A stretch of DNA of 32,000 bases, taken from contig DIRZ01000003.1 of NCBI GenBank assembly GCA_002421785.1, forward strand, positions 120,001 through 152,000, read 5' to 3'. The translations under genes were made by a program, and so were the position numbers. Below are positions 2,344 to 30,001 of the stretch, in pieces. Origin of the DNA: Candidatus Saccharimonadota bacterium. Lineage in GTDB: Bacteria > Patescibacteriota > Saccharimonadia > Saccharimonadales > Saccharimonadaceae. Position 1 is the first letter of the stretch. Each line of letters begins with the position of its first letter. The notes under the pieces were generated by a model. The model saw nothing but the letters and a program-made list of their open reading frames with translations. It did not search any database and was not told where the DNA came from.

Positions 2344-2348
2344 TGGGC

Positions 2349-2378
2349 GACCCGGCACGACGGGGGTCGTGCCGGGTC
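2349..2378 (-). terminator. GC-only perfect hairpin just after the stop of CDS 2392..2898
   Basis: GACCCGGCACGAC-GGGG-GTCGTGCCGGGTC is a 13-bp perfect stem with a 4-nt loop and no T-tail, the style of high-GC actinobacterial terminators. Confidence 0.6.
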
Positions 2379-2391
2379 TAACCCGACTGAG

Positions 2392-2898
2392 TCAGCTGGC
2401 TGCCGTGGCGGGAACCTGCTTGTTCCGTACCACGGACGGCTTGGCTGGCTTCTTGCGGAGGGTGATGGGGTTCGAGCGCGCGGGACGCCGGTCGTGCTGC
2501 GCCTTGTTGGCGGTGGCCTCCAGCGACTTGGCGAAGAACATCGCCGCGAAGCGGTAGACGCCCGGGGTGATCTCGACGGGGTAGCCGTTGGGCCCGAGTA
2601 CGTCCAGCATTCCGGGCAGGTGATCGGGTGCCTCCTCGATGACGGCAGCCACTCGACCCATCGGCTTGAGGCCGCGTGCCGCCCTTGCAGCGTTGTGCTC
2701 CTCGAGGTCGAAGACCAAGAACTGCCAGTACATGACCCGCAGAGCCTCGTACACGGCGGCAGTGACTGGCTTTACGCCGTCGGGGTTGCCGGGAACGGGG
2801 TTGTACGCGTACGTGCCGGTTGCGGACCGAACGGCGAAATTGCCTTCCCAGACACGCTTGACGTGCGCCAGGCGTGCCATTACGGGATCGTTGCCCAT
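2392..2898 (-). CDS. Hypothetical protein, GC-rich islet a (168 aa, no Cys, basic disordered tail)
   Basis: ORF track. GAGGAG lies 6 nt upstream of the ATG, most codons end in G/C when translated by hand, and the amino-acid composition is protein-like. The overlapping plus-strand ORFs are R/G/P-rich nonsense. I recognise no family. Confidence 0.7.
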   Translation of the reverse strand: MGNDPVMARLAHVKRVWEGNFAVRSATGTYAYNPVPGNPDGVKPVTAAVYEALRVMYWQFLVFDLEEHNAARAARGLKPMGRVAAVIEEAPDHLPGMLDVLGPNGYPVEITPGVYRFAAMFFAKSLEATANKAQHDRRPARSNPITLRKKPAKPSVVRNKQVPATAAS

Positions 2899-2948
2899 GA
2901 ATTACTCCTCAGTAGTCGGGTTCGTGGTGTTGCCAAAACGGCAGCACA

Positions 2949-4014
2949 AAGTACGGAATATACTAGGACACCCACTAACTCCCAGTAGCTAAAATAGATT
3001 CATGCAGGCTAAGAAATACATTGGTTTGAGCGACGCGGAGCGGAGCGAAATAGAGATCTTAAAATGTAAAGGATACAGCATACGCAAGATAGCTGAGGTG
3101 CTCGGGCGAAGCCCGAACACCATCAGCCGAGAGATTAAGGTTAATAGCGTAGCTGGTGAGTACACTGCCAAAAAAGCCAAGGCGAAGAGTCGAGTGTCTA
3201 GGCGTAGTCGACGGTACCAGTGGCAGAAGATCGAGAACTACCCCGCGCTTTGGTTGTTCGTAGCTGAGCACTTAGCTCCTCCATACGACTGGAGTCCGCG
3301 AGCAATCTCGGGCTACTTAAGAACGCAGCAGACCATACTGCCATATGTCAGTACGACGCAAATCTATGCTTGGCTTTACAGCTCTAGAGGGCAGCCATAC
3401 TGCCAATACCTCTACTCCGAAAGATACCACCCAAGGAGGCGCCACAAAAACAAGACCGAGCGTGTCATGATTCCCGACCGTGTATCTATTACAGAGCGGC
3501 CAGTGGCTGCTCTGGACCGTTTTGAATCAGGACACTGCGAATACGACTCAATCGTAAGTACTAAGCGTAGCAAGAGTACGGCTGCACTCGCTGTGCTTCA
3601 AGAAAGAACAACGCGGCTCGTGTGTGTAAAGCTTGTTCCCAGCCTCAAGCCAGCGCCGTATGCTGCAGCCATCGTACGGCTTGCTAGCGGGCTGAGAGTA
3701 TACACCATGACAACCGACAACGGCATTGAGAACAAACAGCATAAACTCATTACTGAGAAGACGGGCGCGCCCGTCTTCTTTACTGACCCATACTCCAGTT
3801 GGCAAAAAGGTGGCGTTGAGAATGCCAACAAAATGATCCGACGCTACTTCCCTAAGGGCACTGACTTTAGCGCAGTGAGCCAAGCGGAGATAGACGAAGT
3901 TGTTACTCGCATAAACAACAAGCCGAGGCAGTGCCTCGGCTTTAAAAGTGCGTTACAATGTGCAGTAGAGAAAGGTTTATTGCTGGACGTAGTGTCCTAG
4001 TAATGACCGTACTT
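2949..4014 (+). mobile_element. IS30-family insertion sequence (about 1066 bp)
   Basis: The terminal inverted repeats are AAGTACGGaatatACTAGGACAC (2949..2971) and the reverse complement of 3992..4014, AAGTACGGtcattACTAGGACAC. They flank a single IS30-type transposase gene. I could not see a clear target-site duplication. Confidence 0.85.
3002..4000 (+). CDS. IS30-family transposase
   Basis: 332 aa. There is an N-terminal HTH (YSIRKIAEVLGRSPNTISREI) and a DDE core with the typical DNGIEN ... FFTDPYSSWQKGGVENANKMIRRYFPKG motif. Confidence 0.92.
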   Translation: MQAKKYIGLSDAERSEIEILKCKGYSIRKIAEVLGRSPNTISREIKVNSVAGEYTAKKAKAKSRVSRRSRRYQWQKIENYPALWLFVAEHLAPPYDWSPRAISGYLRTQQTILPYVSTTQIYAWLYSSRGQPYCQYLYSERYHPRRRHKNKTERVMIPDRVSITERPVAALDRFESGHCEYDSIVSTKRSKSTAALAVLQERTTRLVCVKLVPSLKPAPYAAAIVRLASGLRVYTMTTDNGIENKQHKLITEKTGAPVFFTDPYSSWQKGGVENANKMIRRYFPKGTDFSAVSQAEIDEVVTRINNKPRQCLGFKSALQCAVEKGLLLDVVS

Positions 4015-4035
4015 AAGTCAGACATCCATTCTATT

Positions 4036-4064
4036 ATTATACCTGATAACATTCGAAATGTCAA
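4036..4064 (-). promoter_or_regulatory. Perfect consensus sigma70-type promoter firing leftward into the IS30 right end
   Basis: The reverse strand reads aTATTGACA-tttcgaatgttatcagg(17)-TATAAT. The -10 box ends 22 nt before IS30 IRR, and there is no ORF between the promoter and the IS. Confidence 0.6.
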
Positions 4065-4126
4065 TATGCTTATGTTCAAAAACCCAACAACGTTCAGCTG
4101 AACCGCACTGTCACCAGAGGTCGTAT

Positions 4127-4654
4127 TTATGACAAGTGGTGCTGCTGTAGCCACACATACATGGCTATGCCGGCGGCAACCCCCACATTAACGCTCCGTG
4201 TACTTCCCAACTGCTCAATGGCCACGATTCGTGAAGCGCTACGCAGCAGCTCCTCGCTAATGCCCGGTCCTTCTGCGCCAAACAGCAAGACTGGTTTAGC
4301 TGGTAGTTTCGTATGGTGAAGTGGCTCGCTTCCTGCTACATTATCGACTGCAATCAGTGTTTTATCTTGGACTGCTTTCATAAACTCATGCGGTGTCGCG
4401 TAATAGTGAATGTGCAGATATTTATCTGTCATCATGGCACCGCGCTTATTCCACTGCTTACGGCCAATCACATGGAGGTGTCGCACCCCGAAAGCGTTGG
4501 CATTGCGTACGATAGTGCCCATATTGAAGTCGCGTTCGACATTTTCGATTGCGATTTCGAGCTCAATCGGCGAACGATCCAGGTCTGCAACAATTTGCTC
4601 GTGCGGAACACCCTTGTATTTATCGATGACGTTTCGCCTATCTTGTGTTGTCAT
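4127..4654 (-). CDS. TrmH/SpoU-family RNA 2'-O-methyltransferase
   Basis: 175 aa. SpoU motifs are present: NMGTIVRNANAFGV, LLFGAEGPGIS and IEQLGSTRSVNVGVAAGIAMY. Confidence 0.8.
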   Translation of the reverse strand: MTTQDRRNVIDKYKGVPHEQIVADLDRSPIELEIAIENVERDFNMGTIVRNANAFGVRHLHVIGRKQWNKRGAMMTDKYLHIHYYATPHEFMKAVQDKTLIAVDNVAGSEPLHHTKLPAKPVLLFGAEGPGISEELLRSASRIVAIEQLGSTRSVNVGVAAGIAMYVWLQQHHLS

Positions 4655-5316
4655 GACTGAGTATTACTCCCAAGTACGTCGAGAATTATCGAGCTATCAC
4701 TCACCGTTAAACGCGTCAAAGACGCGTTCGACAATCGCGTTTTGTATACCCACTCTTGATCATAGCCTTTTATTTGGGCGACAAGCGCCTTAATCGCGGT
4801 TTCGTGAGTAACAATCAATCCACATTCGGGCAGCATAATCCCCCGCGCAGCTTCATAGGCTGCATCTTCGCGTGGAGTGTATCGCACCAAATTACCCATG
4901 CGACATACAGCCGCTTTCATTCGCTCACCGACCTCAGCTACCGACTCACCACCCGGTAGTTTAAAGTTCTTGCCTCGTTGCGCAATCTGTTCAAGTCGCT
5001 CAGGCGTATACGTCTCTATGCGTGATTGCCCTTCGAATGCCCCCTGTGACAGTTCTTGGAATGCAGGGTCAATCACCACCCTTCCCCGATAGTTCATTTG
5101 ACGTAATGCGTACGCAGCGGTGTCCATAGTGCGCACCGCAGGTGAAACCGCCACGAGCGATGGCCTGATGAGCATACGCGCCATGTATGCCCCGGCACGT
5201 TTTGCCTGATTGACACCTAATTCGCTCAATGGCGATTCGGGTGTACGACCACCAATCAGCTCTGGGCGTAAATTCGCCTGGGATTGGCCGTGTCGAAGTA
5301 GGTATAGTAGCGCCAT
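4651..5316 (-). CDS. Histidine phosphatase family protein (phosphoglycerate-mutase-like)
   Basis: 221 aa beginning MALLYLLRHGQSQAN (RHG catalytic motif). It overlaps the downstream trmH-like start by 4 nt. Confidence 0.75.
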   Translation of the reverse strand: MALLYLLRHGQSQANLRPELIGGRTPESPLSELGVNQAKRAGAYMARMLIRPSLVAVSPAVRTMDTAAYALRQMNYRGRVVIDPAFQELSQGAFEGQSRIETYTPERLEQIAQRGKNFKLPGGESVAEVGERMKAAVCRMGNLVRYTPREDAAYEAARGIMLPECGLIVTHETAIKALVAQIKGYDQEWVYKTRLSNASLTRLTVSDSSIILDVLGSNTQS

Positions 5317-5337
5317 AGCTATCCATTATGCCACAGC

Positions 5338-5361
5338 AATAAAAAAATACCCATGCGGGTA
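5338..5361 (-). terminator. Intrinsic terminator downstream of CDS 5506..5994
   Basis: The reverse strand reads TACCC-GCAT-GGGTA-TTTTTTTATTGC. It ends with the same TTTTTATTGC tail as the terminator at 2314..2343. Confidence 0.55.
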
Positions 5362-5505
5362 TAGGGGGGTGCTTACCCCAGGAGATGAACGGCGATGCGA
5401 GGACGAGAACACATTGTCTCGTCAGCACGTCCATCCCCCGGGGGTTCACACACTACTTGTATCGTTCAATCGTTACCGAGCGGCGGCGATCAAATGAGGA
5501 TGAGC

Positions 5506-5994
5506 TCAGACGTTGGCCGGCTTCTTGCCGAACACCTGCATCGGGTTCGGCACAGTGGTCGGGGACTTGACCGGGGCGGCGGAGCTGGGCTGCGTGTTGC
5601 TGCGGTACAGCTGGTTGCCGGCCCAGTACAGGGCCTCCTGGGCCCACTGCGACGCCGCCAGGGCGGCTTCGGCCGTGGCCTTGTCGTCGAAGAACGGCTT
5701 GTTCTTCTTGGTGGCGGCTTCGGCGGCGACGTGGATGGCACCCTTCAGGACCTTGCCCGTGCGGCTTTTGACCGCCCGTGCTGCCCTGAACTCCTCCATG
5801 ACGGAGAGGAAGATGACTCGCTGGGGATCATCGTCCTTCATCTTGGTGACGTCCATGGTGATGCCCTTGTTGCACTCGACGTGCTTCATCGCCATGAGGA
5901 TCTGGGGGTCGCGCTGCGCGGCGAGGCGCAGGTACTCGTCCTTGGCCTGGGTCCTGGTGCCGCCTCCGACGATGTGACGCGTGCGGTTAGGCAT
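5506..5994 (-). CDS. Hypothetical protein, GC-rich islet b (162 aa from MPNRTRH)
   Basis: ORF 5506..6006. I prefer the second ATG (5994) because GGAGG lies 5 nt upstream of it. Nearly every codon ends in G/C. The antisense ORFs 5395..6087 and 5513..5977 look like high-GC artefacts. I recognise no family. Confidence 0.7.
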   Translation of the reverse strand: MPNRTRHIVGGGTRTQAKDEYLRLAAQRDPQILMAMKHVECNKGITMDVTKMKDDDPQRVIFLSVMEEFRAARAVKSRTGKVLKGAIHVAAEAATKKNKPFFDDKATAEAALAASQWAQEALYWAGNQLYRSNTQPSSAAPVKSPTTVPNPMQVFGKKPANV

Positions 5995-6091
5995 GGTGAC
6001 CTCCATCCCTTCCCATTAGGGGAAGATTGTAGTGTGTTGAAAACTGCTGATTCCATGCGGGCGAAATGCCTCGTCATGTCATCGTGAAAGC

Positions 6092-6120
6092 ATTGTAGCA
6101 TAAACATGATAATTTGTCAA
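6092..6120 (-). promoter_or_regulatory. Near-consensus promoter for islet-b CDS
   Basis: The reverse strand reads gTATTGACA-aattatcatgtttatgc(17)-TACAAT, about 95 nt upstream of ATG 5994. Confidence 0.6.
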
Positions 6121-6150
6121 TACTATGATATCAAAATGGCGTATTCCTCA

Positions 6151-6179
6151 TTGATTACACCCCTGTTGCATGATATGAT
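6151..6179 (+). promoter_or_regulatory. Promoter of tRNA-Leu(CAG)
   Basis: TTGATT-acacccctgttgcatga(17)-TATGAT, ending 11 nt before the first tRNA nucleotide. Confidence 0.55.
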
Positions 6180-6190
6180 ACTGATAGCAT

Positions 6191-6277
6191 GCGGATGTGG
6201 CGGAATTGGTAGACGCGCTAGCTTCAGGTGCTAGTGCCCTTCGGGGCGTGGAGGTTCAAGTCCTCTTATCCGCACCA
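6191..6277 (+). tRNA. tRNA-Leu (anticodon CAG), CCA encoded
   Basis: Hand fold: acceptor GCGGATG/TATCCGC, anticodon stem CTAGC/GCTAG with loop TTCAGGT (CAG), a long variable arm GCCCTTCGGGGC, T arm GGAGG-TTCAAGT-CCTCT, and terminal ACCA. Confidence 0.9.
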
Positions 6278-6315
6278 GAATAAGAACCCAGGTTATACAC
6301 CTGGGTTTTTATTCT
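6277..6315 (+). terminator. Long hairpin terminator after tRNA-Leu(CAG)
   Basis: AGAATAAGAACCCAGGT-tatac-ACCTGGGTTTTTATTCT is a 17-bp stem with one mismatch, and the T-run lies within and after the 3' arm. Confidence 0.7.
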
Positions 6316-6346
6316 GGCTCTGTTTGGTGATTTTGAGCCTTCACCC

Positions 6347-6467
6347 CGGGGCGTGGAGGTGAGAACTGCCTGTGGCAGTTCGGAAACGAACCTTCCGATG
6401 AAAGCTGTGCTTTCAGTCGTAAAGTTCGGGGGTCGCCTAAGGTGACTAAGTCCTCTTATCCGCACCA
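6347..6467 (+). other. Partial duplicate of the tRNA-Leu(CAG) 3' end, split in the T-loop by an 87-nt structured insert (candidate tRNA-like ncRNA or att remnant)
   Basis: CGGGGCGTGGAGGT (6347..6360) equals 6242..6255, and AAGTCCTCTTATCCGCACCA (6448..6467) equals 6258..6277. In the tRNA these two blocks are 2 nt apart; here they are separated by 6361..6447, which forms three hairpins. No matching 5' acceptor strand lies upstream, so this is not a complete tRNA. Confidence 0.5.
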
Positions 6468-6469
6468 TA

Positions 6470-6501
6470 GTAAATGCCCGGGGAATTCCTCGGGCATTTA
6501 C
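6470..6501 (+). terminator. Hairpin terminator after the tRNA-like fragment
   Basis: GTAAATGCCCG-gggaattcct-CGGGCATTTAC is an 11-bp stem followed by TTTGG on the plus strand. The T-tail is better on plus than on minus. Confidence 0.55.
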
Positions 6502-6549
6502 TTTGGTGGTATACCTGCAATGAACCGGCGATATACATGCTTGTTATGC

Positions 6550-8175
6550 CTATAGACCAAACCGAGCAAGCTGGCCGGCGTCATGGCTGTCGCGGAGCAT
6601 CGCGGCCAGCTGGCGGGTATCGGTTGGTTCTTTTACCCCAGTATTCATAAACCCGTACGGATCACACACCTTGCGGATCGACGCATACATTGCAACGACC
6701 TGTTCATCCAATTGAGCATAGATAAACCGAGATTTCAAGCGCCCCTCTCCCCCCTCTGCGATCATCGTGCCACCATGCGCGTAGACCAGCTTTGTCAGGT
6801 CGTCGAGCAGCTTAAATATCCGCTGCTTATCGCTCACCTTGTGCAGCTCAAACGTCGGATACACACTATAGGTATTGGTATATACATGCCCGGCAAGCGG
6901 TAATGCAACATGGTCTTTCGCGGCTAGCTCCTGCAACGACCGAGCAAATTCCTCTAGACGTTCCGTGGGCACGTGGAACCCGCCGTAGAGGTTCGGCGCA
7001 GCCAAGCTCGCGTGATCAGGCAAGGTCGTATAGTAAGCAACATCAAGAGCCGCCAATAAATCATCGGCAGCATCACCATTCGCAAATGTCGTCGCAACAT
7101 CATCCGCATTTGCAAACATTTTCGTAATCTTTTTTAGTGCTTTTGCCCGGTGGTGCTCGCTAAAATCATCAAAGCCTATAATCACGACGCTTTCCGGCTT
7201 CAGTTTTTCGGAGGCCTGAGTATAAAAATCGTATTTACGCCCGCATGTTGCCGCAGTGTTAAAAAGTTCTGCATCGTAATATTCAACGAAGGCCGGCATC
7301 ATTTTACATAAATCATCCAATGCATCACGAGCCGCATTGGCGCTTGCAAACACCAATGCCGCGACTCCGTAATGAAGGCTGCGATATTCTGCACGTAAAA
7401 TCATTTCAGTAATAATGCCAAGCGTGCCCTGACTCCCAATAAATAACGGTGTAAGGTCGAAGCTACCATCCTTTTGCTTTACGTCCGCAATAGTGTTGTA
7501 CCCAGTAGCATCATTTGAGCGCAAGTTATCAAGGATGTCTGCACTTTCTTCAATAATGCCATCGATTCCGCGGTAAATATCGCCTTCGAACGTCTGCAGG
7601 CCCTTGCGTCGGCTCAGCTCGCGCTTGTTGATCCGGCCCGTTTGAATAACATCACCGTTCGCCAGTACAACCTCGAGCTGATCAATCGCTCGTTCAATGG
7701 TGCCATACTTACCGGCCAGCGGCCCTGCGACCGCACTGGCAATTGCGCCACCGATTGTTCCAAAAACCTGCGAGCCTGCGAGCGACATAATAGAAGTGCC
7801 ATGAAGCGAGAGTGCCTGCGATAAGGCACCTATGGCTACTCCTGGCTGCAAACGCACCAATTTCTGCTTTGCATCATACTCAAAAATTTTGTTCATATGG
7901 GCGGTCGTCACGACAGACGCCCCCTTGCCAATCGCCGCACCGGTACCGTCTGTCCCAGCGCCGCGCACGGTAACAGGAATAACATGGCCCTTTTCTGCAA
8001 GTTGCCAAGCAAACCGGCAAACCTTACGAATATCATTTGTAGAGCGGGGATAAATTACCATTTCAGGAACAATTTTCAGGACACCCGCATCTGTACTCAT
8101 TGCCTCTCGGACATCGGTGCGGGTAGAAACTTCGCCTGTTAAATGACCGCGTAGATAGGTCGCAACCTTACTCAT
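6550..8175 (-). CDS. FAD-binding oxidoreductase (GlcD / D-lactate dehydrogenase-like, PCMH-type FAD domain)
   Basis: 541 aa. The N-terminal FAD-binding region reads PEMVIYPRSTNDIRKVCRFA...VTVRGAGTDGTG...GTIGGAIA. Confidence 0.7.
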   Translation of the reverse strand: MSKVATYLRGHLTGEVSTRTDVREAMSTDAGVLKIVPEMVIYPRSTNDIRKVCRFAWQLAEKGHVIPVTVRGAGTDGTGAAIGKGASVVTTAHMNKIFEYDAKQKLVRLQPGVAIGALSQALSLHGTSIMSLAGSQVFGTIGGAIASAVAGPLAGKYGTIERAIDQLEVVLANGDVIQTGRINKRELSRRKGLQTFEGDIYRGIDGIIEESADILDNLRSNDATGYNTIADVKQKDGSFDLTPLFIGSQGTLGIITEMILRAEYRSLHYGVAALVFASANAARDALDDLCKMMPAFVEYYDAELFNTAATCGRKYDFYTQASEKLKPESVVIIGFDDFSEHHRAKALKKITKMFANADDVATTFANGDAADDLLAALDVAYYTTLPDHASLAAPNLYGGFHVPTERLEEFARSLQELAAKDHVALPLAGHVYTNTYSVYPTFELHKVSDKQRIFKLLDDLTKLVYAHGGTMIAEGGEGRLKSRFIYAQLDEQVVAMYASIRKVCDPYGFMNTGVKEPTDTRQLAAMLRDSHDAGQLARFGL

Positions 8176-8280
8176 ATATTTCCCCTGTTAGACTCATTGT
8201 CACTAGTATAACATAAGGATATTCCATTCATAAACACGCTATTGGTCGACAACTTAGTTTCACTATTCAACAATATCCGC

Positions 8281-8853
8281 ATGACAAGTCCCGAGATATC
8301 ACCTGCACGATTACCATACCACCTAATGCCGCGCACAGTCGGCAACCTCGAAATTGAATCGCCTCGATTCATAAACCCCGATCGCGTCTATTTGCGCGAC
8401 GATACAGGTGAGCTATTCGTCTACTCAGACGACTTACTTGACAGTGCGACAAGAAACCCTAGGGCCCTTATGGGTAAAGTCGGGCTGATGAAAGCCGTGA
8501 TTACAGACCCCGAGCTAACGAATACACAGCACCTCCTCACAGGCTATGTTGTAGATCTGCGGTTCGTGCCTTCAACCGACAAGTTTGACGCTGCTCCCCC
8601 TGCCGAGAAGCCAGATGATGACGAAGCCAACGCTTGGCTCGAAGATATGAAGACACTCGTACCCATTGCCTCGATTGCCTTTACGCACGAACAGGGCTCG
8701 AAAGAAATTGACACAACAGGTGATGCTCGATTTGCTAAAGCCGCCCTCCATCTTGCATCACTTGCAGACGAGCTCGACCATAAGCTCAAGCAGCAAGCAA
8801 AGGTCGCTACCAATAAGCCAACGAGAAAAACGTCGAAAGCACGCAAAAAATAA
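8281..8853 (+). CDS. Hypothetical protein (acidic core, K-rich C-terminal tail)
   Basis: ORF 8242..8853. The track start is a TTG, and the first ATG is at 8281, so the start is uncertain. I recognise no family. Confidence 0.5.
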   Translation: MTSPEISPARLPYHLMPRTVGNLEIESPRFINPDRVYLRDDTGELFVYSDDLLDSATRNPRALMGKVGLMKAVITDPELTNTQHLLTGYVVDLRFVPSTDKFDAAPPAEKPDDDEANAWLEDMKTLVPIASIAFTHEQGSKEIDTTGDARFAKAALHLASLADELDHKLKQQAKVATNKPTRKTSKARKK

Positions 8854-8885
8854 CGAGAATATGATACAATTGTCATACACATCTT

Positions 8886-8970
8886 GCGGATGTGGTGGAA
8901 TTGGTAGACACGCTAGCCTTAGGAGCTAGTGCCTCCGGGCGTGAAGGTTCAAGTCCTTTCATCCGCACCA
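8886..8970 (+). tRNA. tRNA-Leu (anticodon TAG), CCA encoded
   Basis: Hand fold: acceptor GCGGATG/CATCCGC, anticodon stem CTAGC/GCTAG with loop CTTAGGA (TAG), a long variable arm, T arm GAAGG-TTCAAGT-CCTTT, and terminal ACCA. Confidence 0.9.
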
Positions 8971-8972
8971 AC

Positions 8973-9004
8973 GCAAAAAGACTGGCTACTGCCAGTCTTT
9001 TTGC
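8973..9004. terminator. Bidirectional hairpin terminator
   Basis: GCAAAAAGACTGGC-tact-GCCAGTCTTTTTGC is a 14-bp perfect stem with A/T runs on both sides. It lies between the tRNA (+) and CDS 9021..10034 (-). Confidence 0.75.
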
Positions 9005-9020
9005 GTAGCTTTGTACTAAA

Positions 9021-10034
9021 TTACCAGTTCCGAACCCAGAATTGTTGGGTCTTATTAAATATTTTGTAACCGTTTTGATCTGTACTAGCCGACCAGCCAA
9101 AATCATTGCTGTTGAGCCATCCATAGTGTCGCTCCAAAGCACCAATTCGCGTGTTACCATTCATGCCCACGGCATTGAACCACCCGTAGTCGCTAACCGT
9201 TCCGGTTCGTTTTACATCTGGATCTGATGCGCACGTTGCCCCAGCCTGCCATGACACATTGAAGTTCGTGTTCCACAGACTTTGGTGAATCGCTCTGTGG
9301 TCTCCATGGTCGTAACGGTAGCAGTTCGAGTATCTGGCGTTCCTGTATGGACCAACTATATTATAAAATGGAATGCTCGGTAGGCCATAAAGACTTGGGT
9401 TGTCTCGGATTGATCTGATTGCCCAGTCGACCTCATCTTGAGTCAAGTCACCGTCGCCGAGGTTAAAGAATATGACTCGACCCTTGGCGCTATTGTTGCT
9501 AGCAAATGGTTCACTACTCGAATAGAAGACCTTTGCTGAGCTATCTTGGATGAGCGTAGATCCTGCATCAACATGCCCAAGCGATTTGCCCTGAGAATTT
9601 GGCCATACAGTTGTCGACCTGCTCATAGAAAAGCCGCCCGGTATGGCGCTATCTGTCTGAGACATCGTATTTAAGAAGCCTAACGTTGAAGATATTCGTG
9701 CGTTATGGCATTGGGTAGACCACCTAGCATTAGGCAGCACGCTTGGAGAAACCTCATTCCAATGAGTCTGCAGGCTAGGGTTGGCGCAATAAGCGGACTG
9801 CTCGCCACGCGTAAAATAGACAAACACTTTGTAATTGTCTGACGATCCCTCAATCAAGGACCAAGCTTCGAGCTCGTCATCTGGGTGAGGCATAGCCACA
9901 ATCTGCATATGAATTGGTGCGGCCATAACCTCGGCGTCCGTAAATACACTAAAAGACAACGATGTTACGACTAGCGCCAAAGCCGCTAAAGGTAGCGTCA
10001 GACCTTGCTTAATTCGGTGCATTATTTTGTTCAT
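9021..10034 (-). CDS. Secreted protein with PIG-L/LmbE-like deacetylase signature
   Basis: 337 aa. There is an N-terminal signal peptide (LTLPLAALALVVTSLSFSVFTDA) followed by QIVAMPHPDDELEAW, matching the (A/P)HPDDE motif of PIG-L/LmbE deacetylases. AAGGAG lies upstream of the ATG. Confidence 0.6.
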   Translation of the reverse strand: MNKIMHRIKQGLTLPLAALALVVTSLSFSVFTDAEVMAAPIHMQIVAMPHPDDELEAWSLIEGSSDNYKVFVYFTRGEQSAYCANPSLQTHWNEVSPSVLPNARWSTQCHNARISSTLGFLNTMSQTDSAIPGGFSMSRSTTVWPNSQGKSLGHVDAGSTLIQDSSAKVFYSSSEPFASNNSAKGRVIFFNLGDGDLTQDEVDWAIRSIRDNPSLYGLPSIPFYNIVGPYRNARYSNCYRYDHGDHRAIHQSLWNTNFNVSWQAGATCASDPDVKRTGTVSDYGWFNAVGMNGNTRIGALERHYGWLNSNDFGWSASTDQNGYKIFNKTQQFWVRNW

Positions 10035-10065
10035 GTTTCTCCTTTTTTATTAATAATCCCCATAA

Positions 10066-10095
10066 ATAATAGCACGAACATTTTAGGGCGTGCAA
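10066..10095 (-). promoter_or_regulatory. Candidate promoter of CDS 9021..10034
   Basis: The reverse strand reads TTGCAC-gccctaaaatgttcgtgc(18)-TATTAT. Confidence 0.4.
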
Positions 10096-10420
10096 TCATG
10101 GAAGTAATCAGGAATTCATCCTTAGGCGGGACTGCCGAATGACGCCAAGAAATCGTCTTTCCTAGCAGTAATTTGTCAGTTTTCGTGATCATGCGCTCTA
10201 CTACGTCGTTAACTATGGGTTTACGATTTTGTTTTTAGGTTTAAGGTCTAATTCCGGTCGTTCTTATGTTTGCTTATCACAATCTATTCTGGCGCAATAA
10301 CCCATTAGGACAGACTATATGTCAAATCGTTAATAGTGGACTTCCAGGGCGGATAAATGGAGCGTACGGATACGCTTTGTTGACCCGCTCTGGAAAGAGT
10401 TAGGTCAACAAAGGATAGCT

Positions 10421-10639
10421 ATGATCAGTGTACGGCAGCGAAAGACGAAGTCTTTCACCGAGAAGCTCAAGGGATGTTTTGATCAGGGCAAGTTCCTGTG
10501 TGTCGGACTGGACCCGTCGGAGAAGGAGCTTGAGAAGGTCCATAACCGCAACTCCGCCGAAGACACTCTGGAGTACCTGACCGACATTGTCAACGCGATC
10601 GCCTCGTTCGCGACAGCGTTCAAGCCGAACTTCGGGTAG
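10421..10639 (+). pseudogene. pyrF: 5' fragment (72 codons) of a type-2 orotidine-5'-phosphate decarboxylase gene
   Basis: The sequence ...KGCFDQGKFLCVGLDPS...ASFATAFKPNFG* carries the FLCVGLD and (A/Y)KPN motifs of long-form PyrF. It stops where KPNxxFFE would continue, and the remaining roughly 200 codons are absent. An AAGGA SD precedes the ATG. Confidence 0.6.
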
Positions 10640-10830
10640 TCGACGAAGTCCCGGCCGTCGATCTGGAGCCCTACAAGGCCGAGATCGCAGCCAAGTGCAG
10701 CGTCATCGCCGTCAAGCGACCGCACAGTTCCGGCTACACTCCCGCTCAGGCAGGATTCGCCATGGGCGCATGGCACGACGACCCCGACCACAACGACCCC
10801 TACGAGAACACACGAGAAGACTACCGATGA
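10639..10830 (+). pseudogene. Start-less 3' fragment of an unidentified GC-rich gene, stop overlapping the E1-like start (ATGA)
   Basis: Hand translation gives VDEVPAVDLEPYKAEIAAKCSVIAVKRPHSSGYTPAQAGFAMGAWHDDPDHNDPYENTREDYR*. The frame is open only back to a TAA at 10543..10545, with no ATG/GTG/TTG codon upstream of residue V1. Its codons are strongly G/C-ending. Confidence 0.5.
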
Positions 10831-11567
10831 CCGACCCCTTCACCCTGACCGTCGACGACACCGAGGATGGCATGCTCTACACGGCCGTTCGCCAGAACGC
10901 ACCGGACTGGGCAGACCAGACCGGCTGGTTCGATCCCGACAAGGCGACCTCACCCGTCACCATCATCGGGTGCGGCGGCATCGGCAGCAATGTGGCGTTC
11001 GAGCTCATCACGATGGGCTTCAAGCGCTTCGTGCTGTACGACGATGACATCGTCGAGCCGCGGAACCTTGTCTCTCAGAAGGCGTTCCGCCCTCGCGACC
11101 TCTACCGTCCCAAGGTGGAGGCGCTTGCGGAAGTACTCATCGAGTACGGCGCCGTCGAGGTGCTGGTTCGCCGGCGTCTCTTCACTGCCGAAGACATCAT
11201 CGAAGGTGCCATCGTCATCGGTGCCGTCGACTCCATGAGGTCCCGCAAGATCATCTGGGAGGCAGTCACCAATTCGCCGGATGTCGAGCTCTACCTCGAT
11301 GGACGACTGGGCGGCCAGACCGCCCAGATCTTTGCCATCGAGCCGCTCGACGGCGACTGGTACGAGGCCGACTGGCTGTTCGACGACAGCGAGGCGACGA
11401 CCGGGATCACCTGCACGATGCGTGCCATCGTGTACCCCTCGACCGTCATGGCCGGCATCATGTGCCGCCACCTCTCGAGGTGGTCACGCGGCCAGTCGGT
11501 GTGCCGGTTCACACAGTGGGAGGGATCCACGAACGAGATCACCACGTTCGGAGACATCGAGGAGTGA
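10827..11567 (+). CDS. ThiF/MoeB-family E1-like adenylyltransferase (246 aa, minimal, orphan)
   Basis: ORF 10587..11567 trimmed to ATG 10827, because the upstream extension is RSPRS-rich nonsense from a TTG. Motifs: Rossmann IIGCGGIGSNVAFEL, YDDDIVEPRNLVSQ (the DxDxVexsNLxRQ type), RPKVEALAEVL and GAVDSMRSRKII. Confidence 0.8.
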   Translation: MTDPFTLTVDDTEDGMLYTAVRQNAPDWADQTGWFDPDKATSPVTIIGCGGIGSNVAFELITMGFKRFVLYDDDIVEPRNLVSQKAFRPRDLYRPKVEALAEVLIEYGAVEVLVRRRLFTAEDIIEGAIVIGAVDSMRSRKIIWEAVTNSPDVELYLDGRLGGQTAQIFAIEPLDGDWYEADWLFDDSEATTGITCTMRAIVYPSTVMAGIMCRHLSRWSRGQSVCRFTQWEGSTNEITTFGDIEE

Positions 11568-11572
11568 GACCA

Positions 11573-11610
11573 GCGGAGACCCCTGGGCACTTGTGCCTGA
11601 GGGTCTCCGC
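11573..11610 (+). terminator. GC-only hairpin after the E1-like gene
   Basis: GCGGAGACCC...GGGTCTCCGC is a 10-bp perfect stem with an inner GGCAC/GTGCC helix and no T-tail. Confidence 0.6.
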
Positions 11611-11714
11611 GACCGACCACGAATGATAAAGTCGTGCTGATGAGCTGTAGACAGCGAATCGGTCAAATCTATTACAAAGCTAGGCAACAATGCACCATAC
11701 CGTGCATACTACCA

Positions 11715-12140
11715 CTACTCCTCTGGGTATTTACTCGGGTCACCAAGACAATAGCGTACCCATCGTGAATCCTGCTCAACCGTGATGCTTTCAATATAGT
11801 CACCATTATCGAACTTGCCGCGTTTCGCAGCCTTGGCCTCACTCGCAGCAGCCGTCATGGCGTCGGTCACTCCATAATGTTTTTTGAGCGCGACGACGAC
11901 GTCCTCCAGATCAGCAATCTCTGCGACAATTTCACCAAATTCTGCTTTAGTTGGGCTATCGGTGACTGGAATCTCATCCGCCTCTTCATGAACCTTCGCA
12001 ATAAGCTCACGAATTAGCTCAATGCCGTGCAGCGTTCGATGGGACATGCCAACAACCGACGCTTCTTCCTGATAGTCCGGGACTGTCCTGTCACGAACAA
12101 GCTTCCTAAAATAAAATGTCCTGGGTTGTTGCTCGCTCAT
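11715..12140 (-). CDS. MazG-like all-alpha nucleoside triphosphate pyrophosphohydrolase family protein
   Basis: ORF 11715..12290 trimmed to ATG 12140, which has GGAGGAAGGG upstream. The opening MSEQQPRTFYFRKLVRDRTVPDY and an acidic helical core (EEADEI...EIADLEDV) resemble the house-cleaning NTP-PPase family. Confidence 0.55.
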   Translation of the reverse strand: MSEQQPRTFYFRKLVRDRTVPDYQEEASVVGMSHRTLHGIELIRELIAKVHEEADEIPVTDSPTKAEFGEIVAEIADLEDVVVALKKHYGVTDAMTAAASEAKAAKRGKFDNGDYIESITVEQDSRWVRYCLGDPSKYPEE

Positions 12141-12183
12141 TTTCCCTTCCTCCATTCGATGGGATGAACCTATCAAATATAGC

Positions 12184-12420
12184 TTACCACTCTCCTTCCT
12201 GAAGTGCCACCGCACCCATATAATGACGTCGAGCCATGTCCAGTTGTTCCTGGAGCCGACACTGTTCTTCGAATGACGCGCCCGCAGCAATTCCGCGCCT
12301 CAGTAGTATTTGCGCCTGCCATGTCGAAAACTCTGCACCCAGATTCCTCGTTCGGGGCAAAAAAATAGACCCCAATGGGTCGAATGCGTCGATTTGTTTT
12401 GCGTGTTCACCGTTTGTCAT
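12184..12420 (-). CDS. Hypothetical small protein (78 aa)
   Basis: ORF 12184..12444 trimmed to ATG 12420. It lies between rsmD and the MazG-like gene on the same strand. I recognise no family. Confidence 0.4.
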   Translation of the reverse strand: MTNGEHAKQIDAFDPLGSIFLPRTRNLGAEFSTWQAQILLRRGIAAGASFEEQCRLQEQLDMARRHYMGAVALQEGEW

Positions 12421-12453
12421 ATCCCCCCTATAAAAAATCGCCAATCGGCGAAA

Positions 12454-13002
12454 TTAACCAACTCGGCGGAAGGAGGTGAGGTGTGCATTTCCATAACTAC
12501 GATTGTCCACCACAACAATTCCGAGTTCACTTAGATTTGGTACCTCACCTCTTCCTGTATGGGATAATACCATAAGCCCATTGGGTTTGAGAATAGCAAA
12601 TAACTTACTAACTGTGGATAACTGCAAATCATGGTATGGCGGGTCAGCGAATATGATGTCATAGTAATCTGGCTTGGCAGTCTCAATCCACGCATTTACA
12701 GATGATCGAATAATTTGACTTTGCTCATCGGCACCTAGCGAAACCACATTTTTGGCTAACACCTTTTGCGCGATTTTATCACGCTCCACGAATGTACATG
12801 CCTTCGCGCCACGACTCAGCGCTTCCAGGCCTATCGACCCCGTCCCTGCAAATGCGTCCAGCACCCGTGCACCGACAATTTCATCGACAATGCTATTGAA
12901 CATCGCGTTGCGTACCCGCTCACCCATCGGGTGAGTGCGACCGCTATCAGGCGCGTCTATCTTGCGACCACCGTATTTTCCCGAAATGATTCGGATAAAC
13001 AT
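12454..13002 (-). CDS. rsmD: 16S rRNA (guanine966-N2)-methyltransferase RsmD
   Basis: ORF 12454..13107 trimmed to MFIRIISGKYGGRKI. Motifs include GRTHPMGERVRNAMFN, LDAFAGTGSIGLEALSRGA and FADPPY. The start overlaps the upstream stop as TAATG. Confidence 0.85.
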   Translation of the reverse strand: MFIRIISGKYGGRKIDAPDSGRTHPMGERVRNAMFNSIVDEIVGARVLDAFAGTGSIGLEALSRGAKACTFVERDKIAQKVLAKNVVSLGADEQSQIIRSSVNAWIETAKPDYYDIIFADPPYHDLQLSTVSKLFAILKPNGLMVLSHTGRGEVPNLSELGIVVVDNRSYGNAHLTSFRRVG

Positions 13003-13857: not shown

Positions 13858-13886
13858 TTGACTCTATTCCGAAAAAATGCTATAAT
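13858..13886 (+). promoter_or_regulatory. Near-perfect promoter of islet-d small ORF
   Basis: tTATTGACT-ctattccgaaaaaatgc(17)-TATAAT, followed by AGGAG (13906..13910) 5 nt before ATG 13916. Confidence 0.65.
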
Positions 13887-13915
13887 TGCTATACTGTCGA
13901 ACCTTAGGAGTACGG

Positions 13916-14113
13916 ATGAGCAAGCACTTCTTCATCATCACCTTGAACAGCCTACGTCCCGGCGAGAACGCTACGGTTACATGGAGCGGCACTTGCAATG
14001 GCATTGACGACCCCCAGTTGCGTTACCAAAGCATCTTCAACCAGGCGTGCGCCAATTTCGACCTCCCTCCTGGCAGGACATCGGTCATCTTCTACTCAAT
14101 TGAGAAGATGTAA
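13916..14113 (+). CDS. Hypothetical microprotein, islet d (65 aa)
   Basis: ORF 13886..14113 trimmed to MSKHFFIITLNSLRPGENATVTWSGTCNGIDDPQLRYQSIFNQACANFDLPPGRTSVIFYSIEKM. It has a strong promoter, an SD and a terminator, and a C-ending codon bias. I recognise no family. Confidence 0.55.
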   Translation: MSKHFFIITLNSLRPGENATVTWSGTCNGIDDPQLRYQSIFNQACANFDLPPGRTSVIFYSIEKM

Positions 14114-14122
14114 CATCTACCC

Positions 14123-14164
14123 GCCCCGGCCCGTTGCAGGCTTTCAGCCTCCGGAGTCCGGGGC
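14123..14164 (+). terminator. GC-rich compound hairpin after islet-d ORF
   Basis: The outer stem is GCCCCGG/CCGGGGC and the inner stem AGGCT-ttc-AGCCT, followed by TGTTTG. Confidence 0.55.
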
Positions 14165-21026: not shown

Positions 21027-21059
21027 AAAAACACCCGCTCGTTACAGAGCGGGTGTTTT
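21027..21059. terminator. Bidirectional terminator between convergent PBP and PIN/TRAM genes
   Basis: AAAACACCCGCTC-gttaca-GAGCGGGTGTTTT is a 13-bp perfect stem flanked by A and T runs. Confidence 0.8.
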
Positions 21060-21063
21060 ATAC

Positions 21064-22023: not shown

Positions 22024-22032
22024 ATGTTCTTT

Positions 22033-23403: not shown

Positions 23404-23405
23404 TA

Positions 23406-26859: not shown

Positions 26860-26898
26860 ATATCCTCCGTCGGGCGCCTATCCACCCTTGTAATCCAT

Positions 26899-26928
26899 AT
26901 TGTACCAAAAATAATTAGCACTCGTCAA
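26899..26928 (-). promoter_or_regulatory. clpC promoter
   Basis: The reverse strand reads TTGACG-agtgctaattatttttgg(18)-TACAAT, followed by GGAGG 4 nt before ATG 26859. Confidence 0.6.
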
Positions 26929-26941
26929 GTGAGAGTGCTAA
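26915..26941. promoter_or_regulatory. CIRCE element (HrcA operator), perfect consensus
   Basis: TTAGCACTC-gtcaagtga(9)-GAGTGCTAA matches the established CIRCE consensus TTAGCACTC-N9-GAGTGCTAA at 18 of 18 arm positions. It overlaps the -35 of the clpC promoter. Confidence 0.85.
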
Positions 26942-27006
26942 TTACCTTACTAGTTTTACTTCATTCTATACAAACAAAGGATTGCCACAGCAAGCGAAAC
27001 GGTGAA

Positions 27007-28125: not shown

Positions 28126-28197
28126 TATATTTTTCCTTTCATTATCAAAGTTTTGTTACGAAAATATCCGACCTGCCGGCCGGATCTGTACCTTTTC

Positions 28198-28226
28198 AAT
28201 ATACGCCTTCAGCAAGCATAAGTCAA
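28198..28226 (-). promoter_or_regulatory. nusA promoter
   Basis: The reverse strand reads TTGACT-tatgcttgctgaaggcg(17)-TATATT, about 70 nt upstream of ATG 28125. Confidence 0.6.
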
Positions 28227-28247
28227 CTGCACCTATACAGACCCCCC

Positions 28248-28481
28248 CTAGGGGGCGGGATTGGTAAGTGAAGCCACCGTCACAACTGACCACGATTGGC
28301 CCTTGGGAAGCTGGTTTTGACGCGTGTGGTAGCAGCAATCACTAAAGCTCCCCACGATGTCGGTCGTCTCCCTCAGTGCCTCAAGGGCACCATTTAGCAG
28401 ACGAGTCTCGGTAACGAGCAGGAGCGTGTAGGGCACGATGCCGGTACCAGGAGTACGTCGGCACCGCGTGGGCTCAACCAT
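28248..28481 (-). CDS. Hypothetical protein, GC-rich islet e (77 aa); coding status uncertain
   Basis: ORF 28248..28571 trimmed to ATG 28481, which has GAGAGGA 6 nt upstream. The sequence is MVEPTRCRRTPGTGIVPYTLLLVTETRLLNGALEALRETTDIVGSFSDCCYHTRQNQLPKGQSWSVVTVASLTNPAP. Its stop lies inside the palindrome CCCCCTAGGGGG (28244..28255). It could instead be a structured RNA. Confidence 0.35.
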   Translation of the reverse strand: MVEPTRCRRTPGTGIVPYTLLLVTETRLLNGALEALRETTDIVGSFSDCCYHTRQNQLPKGQSWSVVTVASLTNPAP

Positions 28482-28544
28482 GAGCGTTCCTCTCACTATC
28501 AGAGCTAGGCAAGTCGCAGCAAAATACTTTTGACCTAAACACAC

Positions 28545-28571
28545 ATTATACTCTTTTTTGATATTTGTCAA
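28545..28571 (-). promoter_or_regulatory. Candidate promoter of islet e (short 15-nt spacer)
   Basis: The reverse strand reads gTATTGACA-aatatcaaaaaagag(15)-TATAAT. Its -35 shares nucleotides with the queA -35 on the other strand. Confidence 0.45.
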
Positions 28572-28594
28572 TACTGCCGTCGGTGGGCTATACT
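28565..28594 (+). promoter_or_regulatory. queA promoter (leaderless-type)
   Basis: TTGTCA-atactgccgtcggtgggc(18)-TATACT, then 8 nt to ATG 28603 with no SD. Confidence 0.5.
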
Positions 28595-28602
28595 ATTGCA
28601 AT

Positions 28603-29631
28603 ATGAATCTGTCTGATTTCTACTACGATATCCCAGAAGCCCTCGTGGCAACTGAGCCACCCAAAGAACGCGGAGATGCGCGGCTACTTGTACTTGACCG
28701 GGACACAGGCGCGATTACTGATAGGACTTACGCAGACGTCACCGAGTACCTCAACCCGGGTGATGTGCTAGTGATTAACGACACGAAGGTAATAAAAGCG
28801 CGCCTTATAGCGACAAAGCCTAGTGGCGGCGAGCGCGAGCTTGTCCTCGTCGAAAAGCATGGCCGTAGCGACGACTGGCATACGCACAAGGTGCTCTACC
28901 GGCGGAAACTTAAAGAAGGCGATGAACTCTACGTCGGGGACAATAAACTTATCGTCGAACGTATCTTAGGTGATGGCCTGGCGATTGTTCAGAGCAGCCG
29001 CGATCTACTCGAAATCGCCGAGGAGCACGGTTCGGTGCCGCTCCCTCCCTACATGCATCGAGATGCCACCGAGGCAGACGTGGAACGCTACCAGACGATT
29101 TTTGCGCGCGAACAAGGTAGCGTTGCTGCACCAACCGCTAGCCTAAATATGACAGCTGAGACCCTTGCTGCTTTGCAGGCAAAAGGAATTGTTGTCACGT
29201 ACGCCACGCTCCACGTGGGGCTTGGCACGTTTTTGCCAATTCGCGTCGACGACCTGACTGATCATAAAATGCATAAAGAATACTTTGAAGTGCCTGCGAC
29301 TACCATTCAAGCAATTCGCGAGGCAAAGGCAGGCGGTCATAGAGTAGTAGCGCTCGGGACAACCGTCACTCGAACGCTCGAGTACGCGCACGAACAAATC
29401 CTGGCGGGGCCAACCGTAGATATCTCTGGAGAAGCAGATATATTTATGTACCCCGGCTATGAGTTTAAGACAATCGATGGGCTACTCACTAATTTTCACA
29501 TGCCGGAGAGTACGGTCCTGATGCTCACCGCTGCTTTTGCTGGCTGGGACAAGCTAGGGCCTGCGTACGAGCACGCTGTTGCGCAGGAATATCATTTCTT
29601 TAGCTACGGCGATAGCATGCTTATCCTATAA
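28603..29631 (+). CDS. queA: S-adenosylmethionine:tRNA ribosyltransferase-isomerase QueA
   Basis: ORF 28558..29631 trimmed to MNLSDFYYDIPEALVATEP. Later motifs include VPLPPYM, ERYQTIFA, GSVAAPTASLN and GTTVTRTLE. Confidence 0.92.
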   Translation: MNLSDFYYDIPEALVATEPPKERGDARLLVLDRDTGAITDRTYADVTEYLNPGDVLVINDTKVIKARLIATKPSGGERELVLVEKHGRSDDWHTHKVLYRRKLKEGDELYVGDNKLIVERILGDGLAIVQSSRDLLEIAEEHGSVPLPPYMHRDATEADVERYQTIFAREQGSVAAPTASLNMTAETLAALQAKGIVVTYATLHVGLGTFLPIRVDDLTDHKMHKEYFEVPATTIQAIREAKAGGHRVVALGTTVTRTLEYAHEQILAGPTVDISGEADIFMYPGYEFKTIDGLLTNFHMPESTVLMLTAAFAGWDKLGPAYEHAVAQEYHFFSYGDSMLIL

Positions 29632-29636
29632 AAAGT

Positions 29637-29675
29637 GCTCGTGCCATCACTGCTTGTTGCAGCGACGGCACGAGC
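29637..29675. terminator. GC-rich hairpin shared by convergent queA and islet-f ORF
   Basis: GCTCGTGCC-(21 nt with inner CTGC/GCAG)-GGCACGAGC is a 9-bp perfect outer stem. Confidence 0.55.
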
Positions 29676-29689
29676 CTCACCGGCGAGCC

Positions 29690-30001
29690 CTACAGGAACA
29701 GGGAGATGATCGAGTCGGGCTCTGCTAGAACACGGTCAACGGCAGCGAGGCCGAGTGCGGTCAGCGTCCACTGCCCGTCGATGCTGACAAGCAGCCCGCC
29801 AACCTGCAGGTTCGCAAGGGAGTCGGCCTTGACCGAATCCGGACGAGCATCGATGAAGAGCATCGGCGTCGTGTTCATCTGGCCGCGCCGCTGATACTCG
29901 GACAGCTGCACCGCGTAGATGCCGCCGACGATGTCGTCGCGCAGGACCTGCGCGGCCTCCTCGATGTCAGTGTCGGCCAGTAGGGGTTCTTGGGTGGCCA
30001 T
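29690..30001 (-). CDS. Hypothetical protein, GC-rich islet f (103 aa, possible winged-helix C-terminus)
   Basis: ORF 29690..30016 trimmed to the second ATG (30001), which has GAGAGGAG 5 nt upstream. The codons are G/C-ending. The C-terminal ADSLANLQVGGLLVSIDGQWTLTALGLAAV resembles a recognition-helix plus wing pattern, which is a weak impression. Confidence 0.6.
   Translation of the reverse strand: MATQEPLLADTDIEEAAQVLRDDIVGGIYAVQLSEYQRRGQMNTTPMLFIDARPDSVKADSLANLQVGGLLVSIDGQWTLTALGLAAVDRVLAEPDSIISLFL

Follow-up and report, generated by a model that had tools for sequence, protein, structure and literature searches.

Genes that bacteria acquire are usually richer in A+T than the genome that receives them. 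Here we describe small genes that deviate the other way. In a 32,000-nucleotide stretch of a Candidatus Saccharimonadota genome (assembly GCA_002421785.1, contig DIRZ01000003.1, positions 120,001 to 152,000; this whole stretch is referred to as the window), several short open reading frames (ORFs) and the remnant of an operon with an E1-like gene have far more G+C at third codon positions (GC3) than the backbone genes. Whether Saccharibacteria take up genes from the Actinomycetota on which they live is unsettled, and at first sight these islets are a clear case of it. An initial annotation made without database searches (the sequence-only reading) had singled out six islets, a to f, as promoterless ORF-plus-hairpin modules that were repeatedly captured from the host or from host phages. 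This obvious reading lacks support here, and we lean, on balance, towards a different one, in which the islets are accessory cassettes that circulate within a Saccharimonas-related group of Saccharibacteria and are not fresh captures. In the literature, we found no earlier description of GC3-rich cassettes in Saccharibacteria.

Several described systems resemble these islets in part. Like acquired islets of the kind treated by the amelioration model of Lawrence and Ochman, they deviate in GC3 and codon usage in accessory genes only, lie near an insertion sequence and a tRNA gene, are inserted into conserved gene pairs, and show turnover of content. The window genes differ in that they deviate to higher GC, stand as single genes and not as multi-gene islands, have no detectable donor, and have orthologues whose GC3 is undecayed where the flanks are synonymously saturated. 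Phage morons are likewise single ORFs with their own promoter and terminator, a composition unlike that of their neighbors, no known function, and mosaic alleles; the window units, however, lie between chromosomal housekeeping genes (hisS, a spoU-type methylase gene, recG, nusA, queA and tgt) and not in a prophage. Integron cassettes (i.e., a promoterless ORF with an attC hairpin) are similar in that a single ORF is followed by an imperfect palindrome and content varies at a fixed position, but the window units have their own promoters and are dispersed instead of arrayed. Finally, relatives of islet c resemble prokaryotic operons of a ubiquitin-like protein (Ubl), E1 and JAB (Bil-type anti-phage operons and phage E1-JAB pairs), since they encode an adjacent beta-grasp-like protein ending in Gly, a JAB protein and an E1 in that order. 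They differ from these operons in that no E2 was detected with Pfam or PADLOC and the partner proteins X and Y match no family, and the window itself keeps only the E1 intact.

GC3-rich genes stand out from a Saccharibacteria backbone

The window has an overall GC content of 0.513 and encodes, in order, a type IV pilin, hisS, an IS30 element, a spoU-type methylase, a histidine phosphatase, two tRNA-Leu, rsmD, recG, tyrS, a penicillin-binding protein, radA, a clpB-like gene, nusA, queA and tgt. Its closest QueA loci among GTDB species genomes are those of UBA669 (79%) and a metagenome-assembled genome of Ca. Saccharimonas aalborgensis (77%), and 90%-identity clusters of window proteins include entries named Candidatus Saccharibacteria bacterium. 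The Saccharibacteria backbone that had been surmised is thus borne out.

Across 23 backbone genes, GC3 was 0.515 ± 0.041 (range 0.43-0.60). Four of the six islets depart strongly from this value: islet a (coding sequence 2392-2898, minus strand; GC3 0.83, z 7.7), islet b (5506-5994, minus strand; GC3 0.91, z 9.8), the E1 gene of islet c (10827-11567, plus strand; GC3 0.86, z 8.5) and islet f (29690-30001, minus strand; GC3 0.82, z 7.4). The signal is weaker in islet d (13916-14113, plus strand; GC3 0.74, z 5.6), which has only 65 codons and a total GC of only 0.52. Islet e (28248-28481, minus strand; GC3 0.65, z 3.4) is not convincing as an islet: it is a poorly conserved 77-aa ORF upstream of nusA that has no significant hairpin (fold z -0.19) and shares 45% identity with L017 only, and the corresponding sequence of L014 differs (L numbers denote related loci). 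In 300-nt windows, a GC of 0.60 or more was reached only in a, b, c and f and in two small bumps within recG and tgt. The spot counts of 40 and 29 G+C in two 60-nt lines, on which the sequence-only reading had drawn, are exact.

The islets favor C-ending codons (ATC 1.00, TTC 0.96, GGC 0.69 and GCC 0.58) and AAG (0.99), which is the usage expected of high-GC Actinomycetota and agrees with what had been read by eye; the Actinomycetota codon and amino-acid usage used for comparison is that of general knowledge. First codon positions are also GC-rich in a (0.67) and f (0.70) and are backbone-like in b (0.60), c (0.59) and d (0.39), and the islet proteins are enriched in Ala and Pro. On the 5' side, the compositional switch does fall at the Shine-Dalgarno (SD) sequence or start codon, as had been described, with GC-poor 5' flanks of 0.32-0.51. 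On the 3' side, the hairpin-bearing stretch beyond the stop codon has a GC of 0.64-0.74 for a, d and f, and the longer 3' flanks of b and c have 0.57 and 0.53, respectively. All flanks on the checked contigs that bear these genes are 0.45-0.54 GC.

Sharp compositional boundaries in a metagenome-derived sequence could also arise if high-GC pieces had been joined into a Saccharibacteria contig during assembly or binning, a concern that the sequence-only reading had itself raised and that we regard as vanishingly improbable. Over positions 1-12898 the window matches a Joint Genome Institute (JGI) contig at 100% identity, both junctions of islet a read the same in two independent Logan assemblies, and other strains have a and b at these junctions too, in the same GC-poor flanks. 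Because the junctions recur in independent assemblies and in other strains, we excluded assembly chimerism; one error common to assemblies of different samples and strains is implausible. Furthermore, the boundaries fall where intact units with promoters of native type have their start codons and terminators. Two independent short-read assemblies stop inside the IS30 element.

The islets are complete transcription units

The description of the islets as promoterless modules did not hold: they are complete transcription units with a promoter, an SD sequence, an ORF, and a hairpin or terminator. The islet b unit (5347-6120, minus strand) begins with a promoter at 6120-6092 (TTGACA-17-TACAAT, 11/12 positions, with an upstream TG) that is kept in L013, followed by a conserved 5' untranslated region (UTR) of ~100 nt, the coding sequence of a 162-aa ORFan, and a structured 3' UTR in which a hairpin at the stop codon (fold z -4.2) is separate from a U-tailed terminator at 5362-5347. 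The islet d unit (13858-14164, plus strand) has a promoter at 13858-13886 (TTGACT-17-TATAAT, 11/12 positions), a 65-aa ORF at 13916-14113 and a marginal hairpin at 14123-14164 (fold z -2.0). In the islet f unit (29637-30062, minus strand), a plausible promoter at ~30062-30034 (TTGATA-17-TATAAA) and an SD sequence precede a 103-aa ORFan, and a 17-bp hairpin at 29675-29637 (fold z -5.9) is followed by a U run.

The islet a unit (2300-2948, minus strand) encodes a 168-aa ORFan behind an SD sequence (GAGGAG, ~2903) and ends in a 13-bp GC hairpin at 2349-2378 (fold z -5.7 vs shuffled sequence), beyond which there is a weak second hairpin with U5 at about 2300-2345. Its promoter (TTGACT-17-TATAAT) is found in the relative L004, at the position where the window has an IS30-family insertion sequence (2949-4014, plus strand; transposase at 3002-4000). 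This element, identified by an HTH_38 match and by protein clusters named IS30, has 23-nt terminal inverted repeats; it sits 50 bp upstream of the start codon of a and displaces the promoter seen in relatives.

The claim of GC hairpins 3' of the stop codon thus stands for a, b, c and f (z -3.9 to -5.9), is marginal for d and fails for e, and the further claim that these hairpins lack a T tail stands for a and c and not for f, and b has its separate U-tailed terminator. The hairpins of a, b, c and f show no sequence relationship and have no common core site. No tyrosine recombinase or integron integrase was apparent among window ORFs read by eye, some of which were also scanned against Pfam, and the IS30 transposase was the only transposase. 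With own promoters, no shared attC core and no integrase seen, we rejected the integron-cassette reading.

We could not assign a function to a, b, d or f. Scans of these four proteins against Pfam, PHROGs, NCBIfam and PADLOC gave no match, in line with the earlier failure to place the non-E1 proteins in a family, and islet a matched neither a family nor a fold. The a and b proteins each have a conserved N-terminal domain and a hypervariable tail rich in Pro, Ala and Lys; comparison of the two rejected the idea that they are paralogues. As a guess, the fast-evolving, recombining alleles of a, b, d and f would fit a role in interaction or conflict. Rfam scans around b and e returned nothing credible. 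High-GC3 genes create long spurious antisense ORFs, and database entries for these loci can therefore be on the wrong strand; at L001 6812-7405, for instance, the 197-aa protein predicted by the JGI gene caller is antisense to islet b.

Orthologous and unrelated cassettes occupy the same slots in relatives

Orthologues of islet a (75-94% identity) lie upstream of hisS in L004-6, L013 and L093. Orthologues of islet b (57-71% amino-acid identity in a MAFFT alignment) lie upstream of the same phosphatase gene in L013 and L092, and another is found in L091, on a contig too short to show the slot; their GC3 is 0.95-0.97 in L013, L091 and L092. Islet d has a weak counterpart, a 33%-identical ORF in the same slot of L007. 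Overall, a, b, c and d have same-composition orthologues at the same loci where flanking genes are synonymously saturated. Because such orthologues sit at the same loci in relatives, a to d show the pattern that the sequence-only reading had itself held to speak against capture, and the synteny suggests that they are not fresh captures, with f perhaps an exception.

The slots also hold other genes. In L007, the hisS-spoU and spoU-FAD-oxidase slots contain unrelated ORFans with GC3 of 0.85 and 0.92; in L004, the place of the window's IS30 is taken by another GC-rich ORF; and GC-rich inserts lie around queA in L015. In L017 (UBA1944), a 672-aa SPFH/flotillin-like gene (1806-3824) occupies a 2.1-kb stretch of GC 0.65 between clpB and nusA, which are adjacent in the window. 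In the reading that we favor, each cassette consists of a sigma-70-type promoter, an SD sequence, one small ORF and a hairpin or terminator, placed in an intergenic slot between housekeeping genes, and slots are reused, with orthologous cassettes in close relatives and unrelated GC3-rich ORFans in a more distant one.

The conserved neighborhoods that the islets had been said to interrupt are a mixed case, since a, b, c and d occur at the same loci in relatives and only the interruption of queA-tgt by f holds. Islet f had three relatives only among 1.84 billion representative proteins and was present in 0 of 27 related queA loci; queA and tgt are adjacent, within roughly 35 bp, in about a dozen of these, and several others have different inserts. 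Judged by these loci, f is the only lineage-specific insertion among the islets, into a normally contiguous gene pair. An apparent match of f to a 1674-aa repeat protein was discarded as low-complexity noise, and f has no detectable relation to a GC-rich ORF in the same slot of L015. The queA-tgt interval of the window also contains an AAA_33/polynucleotide-kinase-like gene (30070-30630, plus strand; GC3 0.55; Pfam AAA_33, 6e-21). L017 has a copy with 48% identity in this slot (7115-7564); because L017 shares this gene without f, the kinase-like gene is the older insertion, and it and later f would have entered the pair in that order. A promoter-like site within the annotated start of the kinase-like gene suggests that its true start is further downstream.

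No relatives were found outside the group. With tblastn (E <= 0.1), a, b, d and f had no relative in 50,697 phage genomes or 72,556 plasmids, which were the collections searched for outside relatives of d, and a, b and f had none in IMG/VR scans. Searches of 5.8 billion protein clusters (for a and b, with a word-indexed prefilter that relatives below ~35% identity can escape) and of the 1.84 billion representatives (for f) returned close relatives only, in Saccharibacteria-type contexts wherever checked. Thus, in those collections, we found no Actinomycetota or actinophage relatives of a, b, d or f.

These results bear on the proposal that each islet was captured directly, and repeatedly, from a high-GC Actinomycetota host or its phages and then domesticated. 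The high-GC-like codon usage, the U-tail-less GC hairpins after a and c, a GC3-rich pyrF fragment beside islet c (0.78), and the interruption of conserved gene pairs by f and by the flotillin-like gene of L017 are all as this proposal would predict. The biology is also favorable: natural competence has been shown experimentally in Saccharibacteria, of which the cultured members live on Actinobacteria (PMC10633639), and a host prophage binds and weakly infects TM7x (PMC13578794). Competence and prophage binding make DNA entry plausible, but a donor is not thereby identified. Against capture stand the empty phage, plasmid and IMG/VR searches, the protein-cluster searches that led only to close relatives, the orthologues at the same loci across relatives, the named relatives of the E1, all of which are Saccharibacteria, and a Lys/Arg usage that is backbone-like. 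We therefore consider direct capture quite unlikely. A stronger version, in which the copy is refreshed by recombination with host DNA via competence, would explain boundaries at coding ends as well as mosaic alleles.

Cassette alleles are mosaic and discordant with the genes beside them

Among the alleles of islet a, recombination has combined two N-terminal with two C-terminal types (N1/N2 x C1/C2). Islet b conflicts with the phosphatase gene that flanks it. Between the window and L092, the phosphatase gene differs at 11% of fourfold sites, yet the b proteins are only 59% identical; between the window and L013, the phosphatase gene is saturated (74%), yet within codons 1-90 of b only 6 of the 74 codons for identical residues are different. 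Mosaicism of the alleles, together with this conflict, shows exchange between lineages. In the circulating-cassette reading, alleles would move between lineages by homologous recombination and so give rise to mosaic genes, and we infer natural competence as the route of this exchange.

Erosion of an X-Ubl-JAB-E1 operon left islet c

Islet c had been read as a single gene and instead comprises an N-terminal pyrF fragment, a C-terminal JAB fragment and an intact E1. The E1-like adenylating enzyme of the ThiF family (10827-11567, plus strand; 246 aa; Pfam ThiF, 1e-21) has its best PDB matches in eukaryotic E1 enzymes and bacterial ThiF (E1 matches to 5e-19). All of the invariant E1 columns are kept in the window (G48, G50, G51, I52 and G53 of the GxGGIG motif, D74, K96, D135 and C196), and the ratio of nonsynonymous to synonymous substitution (dN/dS) is 0.18-0.30. 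The gene is followed by a GC-rich hairpin without a U tail (11573-11610, plus strand; fold z -3.85). Upstream of it, and overlapping its start codon by the stop codon (ATGA), lies the JAB remnant (10639-10830, plus strand; GC3 0.77), which comprises the C-terminal 63 codons of a JAB deubiquitinase-like gene whose 5' part is deleted; VDLEPYKAEIAAKC of the remnant aligns with VDLKPYKQAIEQMC of the L007 JAB protein.

The full operon, in the order X, Ubl, JAB, E1, is found in L007, L009, L011, L171 and L173, and X is split in L172; Ubl and an intact JAB are present in all six. X (~475 aa) has no family match. Ubl (75-103 aa) ends in Gly and weakly matches SAMP2. A further gene, Y (~435 aa, with membrane-like segments and no family match), follows E1 in L007 and L009. 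Across seven lineages the operon occurs at three or more loci, and in L007 and L009 it sits at the window's own locus, adjoining rsmD-recG. In the window, the Ubl gene is absent and E1 is the sole complete operon gene left. The L173 JAB-E1 segment is 78% identical to the window by blastn, with homology that spans 10621 to 11668 and runs through the E1 3' hairpin, and its E1 is 81% identical. Since L173 retains X-Ubl-JAB-E1 intact at this distance, erosion of the operon in the window is recent; a recent deletion removed most of the operon, and islet c is what it left.

Named relatives of the E1 are, as noted above, all Saccharibacteria. Adjacent JAB-E1 pairs also occur in about 40 of 76 IMG/VR phage loci (24-39% identity; loci GC 0.32-0.67), and the JAB-E1 core of the operon is related to a module common in large-phage contigs. 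An E2 domain was not found in X or Y with Pfam or PADLOC, and PADLOC gave a weak BilD match only (1e-5).

Joined to the JAB remnant at about 10620/10621 is the pyrF fragment (10421-10639, plus strand; GC3 0.78), which encodes the N-terminal 72 aa of a type-2 orotidine-5'-phosphate decarboxylase (TIGR02127, E 8e-9, profile 1-60 of 261). To our knowledge, pyrF is not a gene that these organisms are expected to need. A search of metagenomes for its donor was uninformative, as the sole match was 34% identical and on a 53%-GC contig. The fragment persists as a 62-81-aa ORF in 16 cluster members.

Two further features were seen in the operons of relatives. Several lineages have a spacer of 430-520 bp and ~0.49 GC between Ubl and JAB (L007 8895-9324; L173 2020-2541). 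Upstream of the operon in L009 (129-6783) there is a defence-like cluster with two PLD-domain genes and a 505-aa nSTAND3/AAA gene (GC3 0.82).

Cassette divergence accumulated under a GC-rich regime

Substitution counts in this analysis are small and were polarized by parsimony. Under the codon bias of the islets, synonymous differences are expected to saturate at 0.39, vs 0.625 in the backbone. The two N-terminal allele types of islet a differ at 0.32-0.34 of synonymous sites, which is near this limit, and both have a GC3 of 0.83-0.85. Among fourfold-site differences, the share of changes between G and C is 36-62% where islet pairs are more diverged and 30-33% in the two least diverged pairs, vs ~10% in the backbone, and the divergence therefore accumulated under a GC-rich regime. 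A three-taxon polarization of changes in a was dropped, because two of the three taxa share one allele and the polarity is arbitrary. The operon is GC3-rich relative to its own backbone in 7/7 lineages, and its Ubl gene is always the highest (0.87-0.96).

In the circulating-cassette reading, G/C-ending codons would have been acquired, and then kept, under a GC-rich substitution regime that is not common to the backbone, and the ultimate source of the cassettes would probably be a GC-rich gene pool, for which our search came up empty. The cassettes retain a host-like codon usage after divergence that was enough to saturate their neighbors at synonymous sites. Several observations weigh against this reading. 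GC enrichment is largely limited to coding sequence (in L173, the operon spacers have a GC of 0.39-0.49 and the Ubl gene 0.73), and a segment that was imported whole would not obviously look so. Islet proteins have a Lys/(Lys+Arg) of 0.49 and a Phe+Tyr+Met+Ile+Asn+Lys (FYMINK) content of 23%, both of which equal the backbone and are unlike the values of high-GC proteomes. Third positions of the window E1 have been in balance since the split from L173, with 9 changes from G or C (S) to A or T (W) and 8 from W to S, in small counts with divergent outgroups; the implied equilibrium GC3 of this lineage is about 0.84, which hints at a local GC-maintaining force. With no donor or reservoir found, composition is the one argument for a foreign origin, and our view of these genes comes from 32 kb of one genome and roughly ten related loci.

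The same observations are what one would expect if the islets were native, lineage-specific genes whose third positions are held G/C-rich by GC-biased gene conversion or by selection on synonymous sites (e.g., for mRNA stability or expression). The GC enrichment stops at the coding sequences and 3' hairpins, and the composition of promoters, 5' UTRs and operon spacers is that of the backbone; GC3 differs among the genes of a single operon; the genes with evidence of recent exchange are those with the highest GC3; and every homologue was found in a Saccharibacteria context. The native-like amino-acid usage along the Lys/Arg axis and the balanced changes in the window E1 also speak for this view. 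However, highly expressed core genes do not have a high GC3 (EF-Tu 0.55, S10 0.58, rpoB 0.51), which excludes ordinary translational selection, and the L173 E1 lineage decays towards about 0.5 (22 S-to-W vs 4 W-to-S changes). Unrelated ORFans in the same slots, insertions into conserved gene pairs and the pyrF fragment point to gene gain and not only to local drift. We also know of no report of bacterial gene conversion of the size needed here (GC3 +0.3 to +0.4). A native origin is thus a real, if minor, possibility.

For the GC3 richness of the cassettes, three readings are left: import from GC-rich donors as yet unsampled, possibly the hosts; a local process that maintains GC; or both. We tentatively consider, as an unlikely case, that cassette GC3 is actively maintained at ~0.85-0.95 in a genome whose own equilibrium is ~0.5; possible causes are GC-biased gene conversion in highly recombining cassettes or continual conversion from the GC-rich DNA of hosts. 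If so, the cassettes themselves would record how DNA flows and recombines in an epibiotic bacterium of the candidate phyla radiation. If the cause were ordinary import from unsampled donors, the finding would be routine genomic-island biology. Either way, what holds accessory genes 0.3-0.4 GC3 above the core in a genome of roughly 0.8 Mb is a testable problem, and the slots and cassettes, including the Ubl-JAB-E1 operon of seven Saccharibacteria lineages, are now marked for study.

Other features of the window

The 3' end of tRNA-Leu(CAG) (6191-6277, plus strand) is repeated at 6448-6467, 190 bp downstream, where it bounds a segment of ~170 bp, and a second copy of the 3' end is also seen in L013 (read from an alignment). 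This repeat is probably the relic attachment site of a lost integrative element; no integrase is present with the segment. Because the repeat bounds a segment on the far side of the tRNA and does not flank islet b, and given that no integrase was found there, we rejected a tRNA-targeted integrative island as the origin of b.

Not every lineage-specific gene in the window is GC3-rich. Two ORFans at 8242-8853 (203 aa) and 9021-10034 (337 aa) have a GC3 of 0.51 and 0.50, respectively, and match no family; the N-terminus of the 337-aa protein resembles a signal peptide. Finally, just upstream of nusA (28166-28185), a hairpin, ATCCGGCCGGCAGGTCGGAT, is followed by a U run. It is kept in the window, UBA669 and UBA1944 and may be a terminator or attenuator before nusA.

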